DNA of 64,000 nt, taken from the NCBI GenBank assembly GCA_965203175.1, contig OZ241867.1:960001-1024000 (forward strand). The letters are read 5' to 3'. The notes beneath the pieces are model-generated. The model searched no databases, was not told where the DNA came from, and saw nothing but the letters and a program-made list of their open reading frames with translations. The translations under genes were made by a program, and so were the position numbers. Source of the DNA: Candidatus Latescibacterota bacterium (GTDB taxonomy: Bacteria; Latescibacterota; UBA2968; UBA8231). How positions within the stretch are numbered: position 1 is the stretch's first letter; every line of letters starts with the position of its first letter. Below, in pieces: positions 29,551 to 64,000 of the stretch.

Positions 29551-30336
29551 GTGGGTAGCGCAGCGCAATCGCCCTATCAAGGGCTCGCCCCCATTTACGA
29601 CTATGTAATGGCCCACGTCGATTACGGCGAATGGGCCGCTTATATCCACGCGCTCTTCGCCCGCTTTGCCCCCGACACCACTCGCGTCGTGGACTTGGCT
29701 TGCGGCACTGGCAACGTGTCTTTTGCACTCCACCACCTCGGCTATGAGGTAACGGGCGTGGACCGCTCCGAGGCCATGCTGCAGGTCGCGCGCGAAAAGG
29801 CCGCTGGCACCGGCGTCGAATTCGTCCAGCAGGACCTGCGCCAGCTAGCGGACCTAGGGCCTTTTGACGCGGCCACTTGCCTGTACGACAGCATCAACTA
29901 TCTGCTCGCACCAGCCGACCTCGACGCGGCACTGCGCGGCGCGCAGAACATTGTGCAGCCGGGTGGGCTTTTCGTTTTTGACATCTGCACCGAGCGCAAT
30001 TCGCTGCGCTATTTCCGCAACATGCGCGACAGCGAGCGGGGGCCGGATTTTTCCTACGAGCGGCACAGCATCTACGACCCAGACAAACGGCTACAGAGCA
30101 ATCACTTCTGCATTCGCTGCGACGGGAGCGATGTCGCGTTAGAGGAAACCCATGTCCAGCGCATCTATTCGGTCGCCGCCGTCGCTGCCTGCGTCGAGGC
30201 GAGTGCTTGGGAGTTGCTCGCGCTCTTCGACGGTTTCACATTTGACAAGGGGACCGAAGAATCGGACCGCGTTCACTTCGTCCTTCGCGCTCCGCCAGCG
30301 GCTTCGACGACTCGGCTGAGCTCGCCGAAGACCTGA
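29551..30336 (+). CDS. Class I SAM-dependent methyltransferase
   Basis: VDLACGTG, GVDRSEAML, QDLR, DSINYL, PGGLFVFD. Confidence 0.92.
   Translation: MGSAAQSPYQGLAPIYDYVMAHVDYGEWAAYIHALFARFAPDTTRVVDLACGTGNVSFALHHLGYEVTGVDRSEAMLQVAREKAAGTGVEFVQQDLRQLADLGPFDAATCLYDSINYLLAPADLDAALRGAQNIVQPGGLFVFDICTERNSLRYFRNMRDSERGPDFSYERHSIYDPDKRLQSNHFCIRCDGSDVALEETHVQRIYSVAAVAACVEASAWELLALFDGFTFDKGTEESDRVHFVLRAPPAASTTRLSSPKT
30309..30332 (+). repeat. 24-nt hairpin mini-element copy inside a CTTCGAC...GTCGAAG hairpin
   Basis: GACTCGGCTGAGCTCGCCGAAGAC, 22/24 identical to the middle unit of the 63215-63289 nest. Confidence 0.85.
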
Positions 30337-30354
30337 GCACAGTCGAAGGGAGAA

Positions 30355-61137: not shown

Positions 61138-62001
61138 ATGTCCGACGGCGAATTCATCCGGCCCTTTCCCGCGCTCACCCCCGCCCAACGCTATCACCTC
61201 GAAGTCTATGGCTATGTGGTGATTGAAAACGCGATCGAGCAAGACTTGGCGGATCGCCTGCTAGAGGCTATGCTCCGGCTCAAACGCGACCTCCTGTCCA
61301 CCCCAGACCCAGCCAAAGCTAGCGTCCGCAACTGCCGTCTCTCCTCCTATCGGCCTCACTACCTGCACTTTGCCCACATCCTCGAAGCCGATCCCGCGAT
61401 TTTCGCATACCTAACTCATCCGCGCTTAGTCGGCATGGCCGAGGAGCTCGTCGGCGGCAGCGTGCGCCTCGAAGAATCAGAGGCCGTCGTCAACGAGCGA
61501 GATCCGGAGATCGACCTCGCTGCCGCGCCGCGCTACGGCTTCCACACCGGTACCACCCCAGACGTGGGCACGTACGTCGAAAACGGCCTCTACCACTGCA
61601 CCTTTGTCAAAACCCTGACTAACCTCACAGAGCTAGGCCCGGACGACGGCGGCACCGTGGTCATCGCCGGCAGCCACAAAGTCAAATGCGACCGCGAGAC
61701 CATCATCGCGGCGGCGTACGAAGACCCCGCGCTGATCCACCAAGTGGTCGCGCCCGCTGGGTCAACCCTGCTCTTTGGCGAGGCCCTGATTCACGCCACC
61801 GGCCAGATCCGCTCCGACCGCGAGCGCGTCATCGTCATCGGCGGCTATACCCCGCCGATGTTCCAAGCCTGGAACGGCCAAGAGCCGAGCGCTGAATTCA
61901 TCGCCCAAACGCCCGAACCTCTCAAGCCGCTCATTGCCGGCAGCGACAAGTGGCACTGGCAGCAGCGCCGTCGCCGCCTCGACATGCCGGTCGCCCCGTG
62001 A
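61138..62001 (+). CDS. PhyH-family Fe(II)/2OG enzyme with HxG in place of HxD
   Basis: GYVVIENAI, GFHTG, DDGGTVVIAGSHK, AGSTLLFGEALIHATG. Confidence 0.88.
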   Translation: MSDGEFIRPFPALTPAQRYHLEVYGYVVIENAIEQDLADRLLEAMLRLKRDLLSTPDPAKASVRNCRLSSYRPHYLHFAHILEADPAIFAYLTHPRLVGMAEELVGGSVRLEESEAVVNERDPEIDLAAAPRYGFHTGTTPDVGTYVENGLYHCTFVKTLTNLTELGPDDGGTVVIAGSHKVKCDRETIIAAAYEDPALIHQVVAPAGSTLLFGEALIHATGQIRSDRERVIVIGGYTPPMFQAWNGQEPSAEFIAQTPEPLKPLIAGSDKWHWQQRRRRLDMPVAP

Positions 62002-62996
62002 TCCAACTCGCGCACCCATACTTATTGTTCCTCGGCGACGCCGCCGACCAGCTAGCCGCCAAAACGGCCGTTGGCGTCGCCCAGTGGCGGCCCGAACACT
62101 GCATTGGTCAGCTCCGCCTTCCCGACTGCCACGCCGACCTCGGACTGCCCGACCAAACCCTCGCCGAAGCCCGCGCCGCTGGTGCCCGCACCCTCATCAT
62201 TGGCGTCGCCAATCGCGGCGGCACCATCTCCGACCTCTGGCGCGAGACCTTCCTGCAGGCCATCGACCTCGGCTACGATCTCGCCAGTGGCCTGCACACG
62301 CGCCTTGGCACCATCCCCGGCTTGGCCGACCGCGCCCGCGCAAAGGGCACTCGCCTCGTAGATGCGCGCTTTTCCGACCGCGCTTTTCCCATTGCAACCG
62401 GCGTCAAACGCCCGGGCAAACGCCTGCTCACCGTCGGCACCGACTGCTCGGTCGGCAAGATGTTCACCGCGCTGGCCATTGAGCGCGAGATGCAGGCGCG
62501 AGGCATGGCCTGCACCTTCCGCGCCACCGGCCAAACCGGCATCTTCATCGCTGGGACCGGTGTTGCCGTTGACGCCGTAGTCTCCGACTTCCTCGCTGGC
62601 TCCGTCGAGGTCCTGACCCCGGCCAACCACCCCGAACACTGGGACCTAGTCGAAGGCCAAGGTTCGCTGTTCCACGCCTCCTACGCCGGCGTGTCGCTGG
62701 GCCTCATGCACGGTGCCCAACCCGACGCGCTCGTCCTCTGCCACGATCCCAACCGGCCCCACATGCGCGGCCTACCCGAATACCAACTGCCCGATCTGCT
62801 CGACTGCATTCGCCTCAACGAGCAGTGCGGCCGGCTCACCAACCCGGCCTGCCGCACCGTTGGCATTGCAGTCAACACCTCGCACTTGCCGGAAGACCGC
62901 GCCGCCGAACTGCTCGAAACCATTGAACGCCAAGCCGGCCTGCCCGCAGTCGATCCGCTGCGCCAAGGGGCCGCGCGCTTGGTCGATGCCCTGTGA
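61998..62996 (+). CDS. dgcN: DUF1611-family protein, DgcN-like N-acetyltransferase
   Basis: YLLFLGDA, AKTA.GV..WRPE, GVANRGG, SGLH, VGTDCSVGKMFTAL, ATGQTGI, EGQGSLFH; GTGA overlap. Confidence 0.88.
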   Translation: MIQLAHPYLLFLGDAADQLAAKTAVGVAQWRPEHCIGQLRLPDCHADLGLPDQTLAEARAAGARTLIIGVANRGGTISDLWRETFLQAIDLGYDLASGLHTRLGTIPGLADRARAKGTRLVDARFSDRAFPIATGVKRPGKRLLTVGTDCSVGKMFTALAIEREMQARGMACTFRATGQTGIFIAGTGVAVDAVVSDFLAGSVEVLTPANHPEHWDLVEGQGSLFHASYAGVSLGLMHGAQPDALVLCHDPNRPHMRGLPEYQLPDLLDCIRLNEQCGRLTNPACRTVGIAVNTSHLPEDRAAELLETIERQAGLPAVDPLRQGAARLVDAL

Positions 62997-64000
62997 CCCA
63001 CTTCTCCGTCCGCAGCGAGAGCTTCCCTCTCGCCCAGACCTTCACCATCTCGCGCGGAGCCAAAACCACCGCCGATGTCGTCGTCGTCGAACTGAACCGC
63101 GACGGCTGCGTTGGCCGCGGCGAGTGCGTCCCTTACCCCCGCTACAACGAAAGCGTGGCCGGAACCATAGACGCGCTAGAATCGCTGCGCCCACAGGTAG
63201 AAGCCGGCCTCGACGGCTCGACGACTCGACTGAGCGGTTCGGCTGAGCTCACCGTCGAAGCCTCGCCGAAGTCTGAGCTCGCCGAAGTCCGAGCGGCATT
63301 GCAACGCACTCTGCCGCCCGGTGCCGCCCGCAACGCCTTGGACTGCGCCCTGTGGGATCTAGAAGCTAAAATCAGCGACCGCCCTGCCTATGAACTGGCC
63401 GGATTAGCAACACCGCGTCCAATATCGACGGCCTACACCCTCTCGCTCGACGATCCAGAAACCATGGGCCGAGCCGCTGCCCAGCACGCCGACCGCCCGC
63501 TGCTCAAGATCAAACTCGCCGGTCGCGACGATCTCGACCGCGTCGCCGCAATCCGCGCCAATGCCCCAGACTCGACCCTGATCGTCGATGCCAACGAAGG
63601 CTGGTCCGCCGACCAAGTCGAACCGCTCTCAACCGCCCTAGCTCGTTTGGGCGTCGCGCTCATCGAACAACCCCTGCCCGCCGACCAAGACGCCCTGCTC
63701 GCCGAGTTGGAACACCCGGTCCCCTTCTGCGCCGACGAATCCTGCCACACTGCCGCCGATCTCGCGGAACTAGCCGCCCGCTACGAATGCGTCAACCTCA
63801 AGCTCGACAAGACCGGCGGCTTCAGCGAGGGCCTGCGCTTGGCCGCCGAGGCGCGCGCGTGCGGATTGGACTTGATGGTCGGCTGCATGATCGCCACCTC
63901 GCTGGCTATGGCGCCGGCTGTCCTGCTGGCGCAACAAGCCCGCTTCGTCGATCTCGACGGCCCCCTGCTCCTGCAAAAAGATCGGGAACGCGGGCTGCGC
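62993..64000 (+). CDS. dgcA: Enolase-superfamily epimerase, DgcA/YcjG-like (runs off 3' edge; absent from ORF track)
   Basis: Translated by hand from GTG 62993: FTISRGAK, GECVPYPRY, AARNALDCALWDLEAK, KIK, DANEGW, EQP, ADES, KLDKTGG, GCM, DLDG. Confidence 0.9.
   Translation, partial: MTHFSVRSESFPLAQTFTISRGAKTTADVVVVELNRDGCVGRGECVPYPRYNESVAGTIDALESLRPQVEAGLDGSTTRLSGSAELTVEASPKSELAEVRAALQRTLPPGAARNALDCALWDLEAKISDRPAYELAGLATPRPISTAYTLSLDDPETMGRAAAQHADRPLLKIKLAGRDDLDRVAAIRANAPDSTLIVDANEGWSADQVEPLSTALARLGVALIEQPLPADQDALLAELEHPVPFCADESCHTAADLAELAARYECVNLKLDKTGGFSEGLRLAAEARACGLDLMVGCMIATSLAMAPAVLLAQQARFVDLDGPLLLQKDRERGLR
63215..63289 (+). repeat. 75-nt in-frame insertion of three nested hairpin mini-elements (24+24+27 nt)
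   Basis: GGCTCGAC[GACTCGACTGAGC[GGTTCGGCTGAGCTCACCGTCGAAGCC]TCGCCGAAGTC]TGAGCTCGCCGAAGTC. Confidence 0.88.

Follow-up and report, generated by a model that had tools for sequence, protein, structure and literature searches.

Nested 24- and 27-nucleotide units in a DgcA-family gene of a Latescibacterota genome as probable insertions of a miniature mobile element

The host gene and its nested units

The stretch of DNA analysed here (the window, 64,000 nucleotides (nt)) is G000:C1:960001-1024000, taken from the Latescibacterota genome G000, which consists of one contig of 6.58 Mb with 59% G+C. Near its right end, at 62993-64000 on the forward strand, lie the first 336 of the 351 codons of an open reading frame (ORF) which starts at 62993 and ends beyond the window, at genome position 1024048. 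Judged by its sequence, this host gene is assigned to the DgcA family of N-acetyl-D-Glu racemases: the protein of 351 amino acids (aa) scores 470.3 bits against the NCBIfam DgcA equivalog NF042940 (cut-off 400), matching profile positions 2-323 of 323, and a Pfam scan returned MR_MLE_N and MR_MLE_C, two domains of the enolase superfamily. Within the gene, 75 nt at 63215-63289 can be read as nested units of 24, 24 and 27 nt, which very probably arose when a miniature, non-autonomous insertion element entered three times in succession.

All parts of this arrangement lie on the forward strand. The left half of the original target, GCCGGCCTCGAC, occupies 63201-63214, and the insertion sits directly 3' of its terminal C; the right half, CGAGCGGC at 63290-63297, is known from empty alleles. 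Between them, the outer 24-nt unit begins with GGCTCGAC (63215-63222) and ends with TGAGCTCGCCGAAGTC (63274-63289). The middle 24-nt unit was inserted 3' of the outer unit's CTCGAC and is split into GACTCGACTGAGC (63223-63235) and TCGCCGAAGTC (63263-63273), while the inner 27-nt unit, GGTTCGGCTGAGCTCACCGTCGAAGCC (63236-63262), follows the middle unit's TGAGC. This parse had been proposed in a preliminary description made from the sequence of the window; the sequence is as stated there, and every unit is now backed by independent copies as well as by the alleles described below. An intact copy at genome 2422103(-) has exactly the sequence of the rejoined outer 24-mer, which is also the sole insert at the DgcA site of relatives (L012, L013, L217, L235). 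The middle 24-mer is unbroken in alleles with a 48-nt insert, exactly in L010 and with one substitution in L009, and a middle-type unit at genome 2650478 is split at the identical point, TGAGC^TCGCC, by another unit. For the inner 27-mer, there is an identical copy at genome 1090149, and relatives contain many 100% matches over 28 nt.

Chance can be excluded as a source of the units because the pattern counts far exceed the expectation and the reversed-genome control. The pattern of the preliminary description matches the window twice against 0.02 expected matches, and a structured pattern gave 13 matches in G000 against one in the reversed genome. The family core is G[GA]CTCG[AG]C-TGAGCTC-GCCGAAG[TC]C at 24 nt, given here as TCGRCTGAGCTCRCCGAAG, and is accompanied by relatives of 25-27 nt; G000 holds about 13 loci of the family. 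When G000 was searched broadly for hairpins of any kind around TGAGC, they were no more enriched than in the reversed genome. The insert is also present in independent data, which answers the call for spanning reads made in the preliminary description: in public runs labelled sponge or marine metagenome, from separate studies, the 275-nt contig X4 covers 63207-63481 without gaps, and X1 unitigs tile the region at 100% identity. Depth rises five- to eight-fold across 63221-63288, where many loose contig ends begin, as would be expected of a repeat present in many contexts within the same samples.

Stepwise insertion is shown by 24 orthologous DgcA loci of the same genus, which were collected by protein search and whose states were derived from flank projection and protein alignment. 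Thirteen clear loci are empty (...CTCGAC^CGAGCGGC...; G013, G002, G011, G023, G014, G001, G008, G007, G004, G019, G009, G005 and G016), six of them read from sequence and seven called from contiguous flank coordinates; in these 13 relatives, the unfilled site reads ...ggcctcgac^cgagcggc.... Four loci carry 24 additional nt (GGCTCGACTGAGCTCGCCGAAGTC; G021, G010, G003 and G012), three carry 48 nt with the second unit located 3' of the first unit's CTCGAC (G020, G022 and G006), and only G000 carries 75 nt, its inner 27-nt unit being missing from all 23 other loci. The 24-nt state was read directly in G021, G010 and G012, whereas G003 (24 nt) and G006 (48 nt) were assigned from gene length and pattern matches. 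At the remaining three loci (G024, G015 and G017), the flanks are too diverged to project and the residues are lacking. The same 24-nt state occurs at the DgcA site of L114, a record labelled Candidatus Latescibacterota.

Comparing empty and filled alleles, the insertion borders are exact to within 1 nt, the shared base being a single C. No target duplication was found at the DgcA site beyond this 1-nt boundary ambiguity, as the preliminary description had supposed, and its proposal of repeated insertion at one site agrees with the series of 0, 24, 48 and 75 nt. The clean gap it expected against DgcA homologs is also present: residues 1-73 and 100-351 are covered by both solved homologues, 4gfi and 1jpd, and the gap of 25-26 residues between them is also seen against orthologues. 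Because no insert is present in these homologues or in the relatives that diverge most, the empty state is ancestral. In a local 4-kb tree, the filled alleles fall into one clade (support 99/97).

In the protein, the insert adds 25 residues between two helices of the capping domain. The AlphaFold model, with a whole-protein predicted template modelling score of 0.80, has a predicted local distance difference test below 50 at residues 78-92, so that the additional residues are predicted to form a disordered loop in an otherwise confident model. By sequence inspection, the two target halves joined form a quasi-palindrome, GCCG[GC]CTCG-AC-CGAGCGGC. Upstream, a 348-aa ORF at 61950-62996 overlaps the start of the DgcA-like gene by 4 nt and is probably its operon partner.

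Further loci, coding context and distribution

Exact empty alleles were found at four further sites. Three of them lie in a hybrid histidine kinase gene of G000, which contains three units, all polymorphic among 26 loci. Site A (27 nt) is filled in 2 loci, empty in 16 and of unclear state in 8; site B (24 nt) is filled in 8, two of them decayed, empty in 17 and unclear in 1; site C (24 nt) is filled in 9 and empty in 17, with none (0) unclear. Sites B and C occupy the equivalent position of two receiver domains, 3' of ...TCRAAGGGC. The two genomes with a filled site A are G000 and the more distant G010; the site is not filled in G021 and G020, which are 95% identical to G000 here, and this suggests a hot spot, or else loss or exchange. 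The decayed copies at site B (L185 in G044 and L192 in G008) have 5-6 substitutions where other genomes have intact units. Evidently, a unit is not conserved after insertion, and old copies drift.

The fourth site is the second locus of the window, a 49-nt composite at 30300-30348 on the forward strand. It consists of a 25-nt palindromic relative (GGCTTCGAC...CTGAGCACAGTCGAAG) carrying a 24-nt unit at 30309-30332, which follows the TTCGAC of its palindromic host, and it is situated at the end of one ORF, just ahead of the next gene's start. Among 30 loci, it is present in two (G000 and G042), absent from 27 (AGC^GGAG) and of unclear state in one. Since no intermediate state was seen among these loci, the composite was probably inserted as one block, and nested composites can probably insert or move as blocks. 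The same composite is found at many loci of relatives, where 14 of 76 copies follow TTCGAC.

The related palindromic unit of 25-26 nt is nearly perfect (CCTTCGGCTGAGCTCAGGTCGAAGCC / GGCTTCGAC-CTGAGCTCAG-CCGAAGG), with one copy at 2651524-2651549 of G000. No other sequence in the genus hosts the 24-nt unit as often (L206, L207, L209, L210, L213 and others), and composites of palindrome and unit, 49-50 nt long, recur at many sites. Insertion into itself, which had been described for the DgcA site, recurs at other loci and also in other phyla.

The coding context was assessed in five closed relatives with 76 copies, using a longest-ORF criterion (stop-free frames of at least 200 aa) and not gene calling. 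By this measure, 73 of the 76 copies lie inside such frames. The sense frame giving D/GSTELAEV is used by 27 copies and a second sense frame by 5, while the TGA-containing sense frame is used by none (0 copies); the antisense frames account for 23, 13 and 5 copies. Genes tolerate the units because their length is a multiple of three and only one frame contains a stop, and the frame-neutral tolerance suggested by the preliminary description is thereby borne out.

Target statistics were calculated for 120 copies from many phyla among the matches listed. The base at -1 is C in 118 copies and the base at -2 a purine in 100, while C is found at +1 in 62 and G at +2 in 70. Of 76 copies in the genus, 46 come directly after GAC; in the sample from many phyla, the leading triplets are CGC, CAC, GAC and AGC. 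No correlation exists between the flanking base at -2 and position 2 of the element, which likewise argues that no target is duplicated. Inside the element, nesting takes place at GAC^T, AGC^T and CGC^C, and nests arise because the interior of the element, like structured, palindromic DNA, is a favoured target. Empty sites, when reconstituted, are more stably folded than control sites with the same RC dinucleotide (-10.7 vs -8.0 kcal/mol, p 7e-6, 121 vs 1209 sites). A strong hairpin with the junction in its loop is modestly enriched (42/121 vs 275/1209 controls), and a contiguous stem of at least 5 bp spans the junction at 20 of 120 sites compared with 3.2% of 2399 controls. At L051, L075, L115 and L131, in metagenome-assembled genomes (MAGs) labelled Nitrospinota, Verrucomicrobia and Tectomicrobia, the unit is found in the loop of GC-rich hairpins starting with GTAG, which by their sequence look like canonical repetitive extragenic palindromic (REP) elements.

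The element is widespread but patchy. In the genus, 20 of 31 genomes contain the core at up to one mismatch, with 0-28 copies per genome, and a reversed-pattern control gave 0 in all of them. In the phylum, the exact core occurs in 19 of 168 genomes, of which 17 belong to this genus, none (0/45) to other genera of the family and 2 lie elsewhere. The exact 24-mer pattern was found in at least 120 stretches of a species-representative collection, where by our own estimate fewer than one is expected by chance. Judged by record titles, the hosts among the matches listed include Planctomycetota, Chloroflexota, Verrucomicrobiota, Latescibacterota, Bdellovibrionota, Nitrospirota, Nitrospinota, Desulfobacterota, Acidobacteriota, Gemmatimonadota, Tectomicrobia and others. 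The 123 copies among these matches are highly uniform, with 63 reading GGCTCGAC..GTC, 38 GACTCGAC..GTC and 15 GGCTCGGC..GTC, and the other 7 belonging to four rarer variants (3, 2, 1 and 1 copies). Five genomes of other phyla contain 64, 191, 111, 25 and 65 copies; in a Terriglobia genome, 48 of 65 copies at up to one mismatch are exact. In the class of one copy-rich genome, only 2 of 119 genomes hold the element. The preliminary description had recommended scanning the genome and its relatives, which revealed copies in the genus and in many phyla, a cross-phylum spread that it had not foreseen. The patchy occurrence within lineages, combined with an identical sequence in different phyla, suggests horizontal spread and bursts, as far as can be judged from sequence comparison.

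Several observations concern where copies reside. All of the approximately 13 loci of G000 lie within 555845-2710172 of the 6.58-Mb chromosome, around the likely origin inferred from cumulative GC skew, whereas closed relatives have copies across the whole chromosome. An exact copy on a 4.2-kb contig (L111) of a MAG labelled Promethearchaeota, for which mis-binning is possible, is the sole archaeal case among the matches listed. Twelve IMG/VR viral contigs contain single copies in unrelated contexts and without a pattern. In G051, a MAG labelled Terriglobia, an alignment of five copies (L315-L319) revealed a repeat of about 230 nt, resembling a MITE (miniature inverted-repeat transposable element), with the 24-nt unit inverted in both long terminal inverted repeats.

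Mobilisation and competing explanations

The results show that the unit is added precisely just 3' of a C, usually as RC^, without target duplication. Structured, quasi-palindromic DNA and the three C^ positions inside the element are favoured targets, so that nests result. According to the proposed mechanism, the element would spread horizontally and be moved in trans by an enzyme encoded elsewhere. This corresponds to the suggestion in the preliminary description of a small non-autonomous mobile element that inserts repeatedly, also into itself, and the results obtained here support it. It is possible, but no better than tentative, that the unit is mobilised as single-stranded DNA and cut or copied and pasted by a HUH-type strand-transferase or an unfamiliar analogue. 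A single-stranded intermediate is favoured because a 24-bp duplex cannot loop or circularise. At 43 of 65 independent sites in genus genomes with strong GC skew, the C-rich strand carries the top strand of the element (p 0.0125), which gives modest support to such an intermediate.

As had been observed before, no mobilising enzyme lies near the element in the window. The idea that a HUH/RAYT transposase or a reverse transcriptase might co-occur with it (RAYT, REP-associated tyrosine transposase) was not borne out, as neither Y1_Tnp nor RVT_1 tracks the element. Two Y1 matches exist in G000, one at 330768 and one at L161; the latter was considered as the mobiliser and rejected, being an ordinary IS200/IS605 tnpA-tnpB locus with an unrelated hairpin. 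RVT_1 (PF00078) was likewise rejected, since it is uncorrelated with copy number: it is lacking in G010, G020 and G044 and present in the zero-copy genomes G023, G001, G009 and G046. Crude motif screens for class 3 Y1 proteins at the Y1 loci of copy-rich genomes gave nothing usable. Rfam had no match in 33 kb around four loci, and in L056, two inverted copies enclose 1.9 kb whose genes resemble, by eye, housekeeping genes (riboflavin-synthesis, nusB-like). Avoidance of GAGCTC was tested as a restriction clue and discarded, its observed/expected ratio of 0.55 not being among those of the most avoided palindromes.

Two side observations arose from these searches. Four relatives have a partial Y1_Tnp domain (profile positions 24/40-121) inside frames of 1203-1288 aa, an unusual architecture (G045:C1:1910658, G013:C1:3515915, G044:C1:707139 and G008:C198:1958). 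Other 6-bp palindromes are strongly avoided in G000 (observed/expected CAGCTG 0.13, GGCGCC 0.17, GTCGAC 0.20 and CTCGAG 0.27), a bias which suggests restriction-modification pressure.

A number of results weigh against insertion of a mobile element as described above. No mobiliser was found among the families tested: besides the two rejected candidates, Y1_Tnp (PF01797) occurs in 15 of 31 genus genomes without correlation to copy number, the closed genome G010 (21 copies) and G014 (26 copies) have no Y1_Tnp candidate, and no element at up to four mismatches lies within 1.5 kb of any of the 12 Y1 loci (0/12) in four copy-rich genomes of other phyla. A search for a recurrent neighbouring gene at 120 loci gave only spurious or housekeeping clusters, and one for a long element bounded by two halves in G000 gave only chance pairs. 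The preliminary description had called the units imperfect hairpins; their inverted-repeat symmetry stands, but as single strands they form weak hairpins that are no stabler than shuffled sequence (24-mer -3.3 kcal/mol, z -0.39; 27-mer -2.8, z 0.14; whole 75 nt z -1.47). Insertion tends towards structured targets without requiring them, the junction lying in a predicted hairpin loop at 58 of 121 sites compared with 538 of 1209 controls, which is not significant. The orientation bias is weak: it is about 2:1 in the genus and absent across phyla (52 vs 56 of 108 loci), and its direction would be opposite to the IS608 paradigm if the strand with the 5' target C were the active one. Finally, the empty G014 is sister to G000 within the clade of filled alleles, and the 24-nt and 48-nt states are not monophyletic. 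Since the allele states do not form nested clades, recombination, precise excision or repeated hits on a hot spot are needed in addition.

The last point is the one in favour of the assumption that no insertion occurred and that the 25-residue loop is ancestral or selected, with loss in relatives such as G014; for an assembly artefact, the other form of this assumption, nothing speaks. Either is scarcely credible. The most divergent relatives and the solved homologues are without the loop, the same nucleotide units recur on either strand of unrelated genes, use each of the five open frames and occur in non-coding DNA as well, and independent public contigs carry the 75-nt sequence. The patchiness of allele states on the local tree would also be expected under recombination, and this is part of the case for an origin without a dedicated enzyme, by template switching during replication or short-patch gene conversion between similar hairpin-prone sequences. 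Targets are indeed more structured than controls, and several look like portions of the element, for example CTCGAC^CGAGC at DgcA and TCGAAGGGC^ at both receiver-domain sites. Many others are unlike the element, kinase site A among them, and borders are exact to 1 nt at every site with a single C as the shared sequence. Template switching would produce variable tract ends and no identical 24-mer across phyla, while the ends observed so far are uniform at hundreds of unrelated sites, and this explanation is considered very improbable.

Slightly more credit, although still little, is given to a template-directed insertion, in which a polymerase or reverse transcriptase would extend a nick after C by copying a conserved master RNA or DNA template, so that every unit would be read out from this template and would not derive from another unit. 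The strict unit length and the uniformity of the copies, most of which match a 19-nt core exactly in five genomes, would fit such a template, as would the occurrence of one sequence in many phyla and a junction microhomology of 1 nt (C). However, the 49-nt composite is present or absent as a block and recurs at many loci, which fits recognition of ends and not a fixed template. The rare 27-nt variant has two copies only in G000, one of them a lineage-specific insertion, and this too is at odds with copying from a master. RVT_1 does not track the element, no copy adjoins a candidate template gene, and no Rfam family matches. Successive insertion of a miniature mobile element therefore remains by far the preferred explanation of the 75 nt.

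Relation to known repeats and significance

The nearest known kinds are the small dispersed repeats (SDRs) of cyanobacteria, with which the element was compared by description only, and intragenic REPs. SDR1-8 of heterocystous cyanobacteria (Elhai et al. 2008, Genome Res 18:1484) are described as dispersed units of 21-27 nt that are thought to be mobile; SDR5 (21 nt) inserts precisely inside the palindrome HIP1, and neither a function nor a mobiliser is reported for the SDRs. The present units resemble them in being dispersed, 24 and 27 nt long and associated with exact empty alleles at five orthologous sites. SDRs are also said to nest in each other and to be absent from orthologous sites. 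In contrast to SDRs, there is no cyanobacterium among the named hosts of the matches listed, and the present family is one sequence across many phyla and mostly intragenic. Unlike SDR5, its target is a C in structured DNA and not HIP1.

REPs are defined in PMC3733652 as short palindromic repeats of 20-40 bp. The present unit falls within this range and shares the inverted symmetry, so that the statement of the preliminary description that it is much shorter than REPs does not hold. REPs are believed to move as single strands by means of a HUH Y1 enzyme. Intragenic cases, located in ORFs and contributing additional residues, are reported for example from Opitutus terrae and, as RPE-4 and RPE-6, from Rickettsia conorii (PMC3733652), and both intragenic REPs and SDRs of 21-27 nt predate this element as concepts. 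There are also differences from REPs. The units start with G[GA]C and end with G[TC]C and have no GTAG/CGTC tag, as defined in PMC3733652, on either strand, and their folding is no better than that of shuffled sequences. REPs are mostly extragenic, whereas the present element is intragenic in nearly all copies of the closed relatives; it also nests in itself and is not associated with RAYT, the 12 Y1 loci examined lacking it within 1.5 kb. While REPs are said in PMC6006769 to co-evolve with their RAYT, the present sequence is identical across phyla. Quentin et al. (2018, PMC6006769) describe class 3 TnpA-Y1 'REPtron-like' systems as rare, atypical in structure and occurring for the most part in Planctomycetes, Acidobacteria and Proteobacteria; these host phyla overlap with those of the element, and the systems are a possible lead. 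No class 3 Y1 gene was found in G000 and G010 with the Pfam Y1 profile, which is general and not specific to class 3. The core 15-mers and a description of the family were not found in the papers searched, although REP consensus lists in supplements and figures of PMC3733652 and PMC6006769, which lie outside such a search, might contain the family.

Larger mobile elements share single features. The present element, like IS200/IS605, inserts 3' of C without duplication and with precise ends. Members of IS200/IS605 and their palindrome-associated derivatives insert 3' of a short conserved target without duplication and with precise ends by single-strand chemistry (PMC6006769); they need two different subterminal hairpins and have a strong lagging-strand bias. 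By comparison, the orientation found here is 43:22 in the genus without bias across phyla, and TnpA is lacking in the copy-bearing G010 and G014. RPE-1 of the Rickettsia palindromic elements (RPEs) and MITEs are about 100 bp long or more. RPE-1 is alike in being inserted in frame into genes, which keep their function, and MITEs are non-autonomous with inverted ends, as is the present element; unlike MITEs, it has no target duplication, and no parent insertion sequence was found. Compared with known small mobile repeats, its identity across phyla, its mostly intragenic, frame-neutral insertion and its block-moving nests are unusual, and it is among the smallest and most widely spread jumping elements seen. 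Whether these features amount to an undescribed class, i.e. a frame-neutral element of 24 nt with cross-phylum jumps, insertion chiefly into genes, self-nesting, block moves and a machinery that is neither RAYT/IS200 Y1 nor RVT_1, is possible but less likely than not.

How REPs and SDRs move has been an open question for decades, partly because clean before-and-after alleles are rare. Here, the empty, single, double and triple states at one site, together with four more sites, fix the insertion chemistry to the nucleotide. With many copies of the 24-mer in several phyla and none in most relatives, it is directly feasible to search for the mobiliser by phyletic profiles on a large scale. If the machinery is indeed neither RAYT/IS200 Y1 nor RVT_1, the enzyme or mechanism would be new. 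The element is also a trap for alignment, annotation and short-read assembly, and public short-read unitigs at the DgcA locus break at the repeat. For the proteins of its hosts, it adds loops of 8-25 residues in at least five frames and is thus a source of protein length variation.

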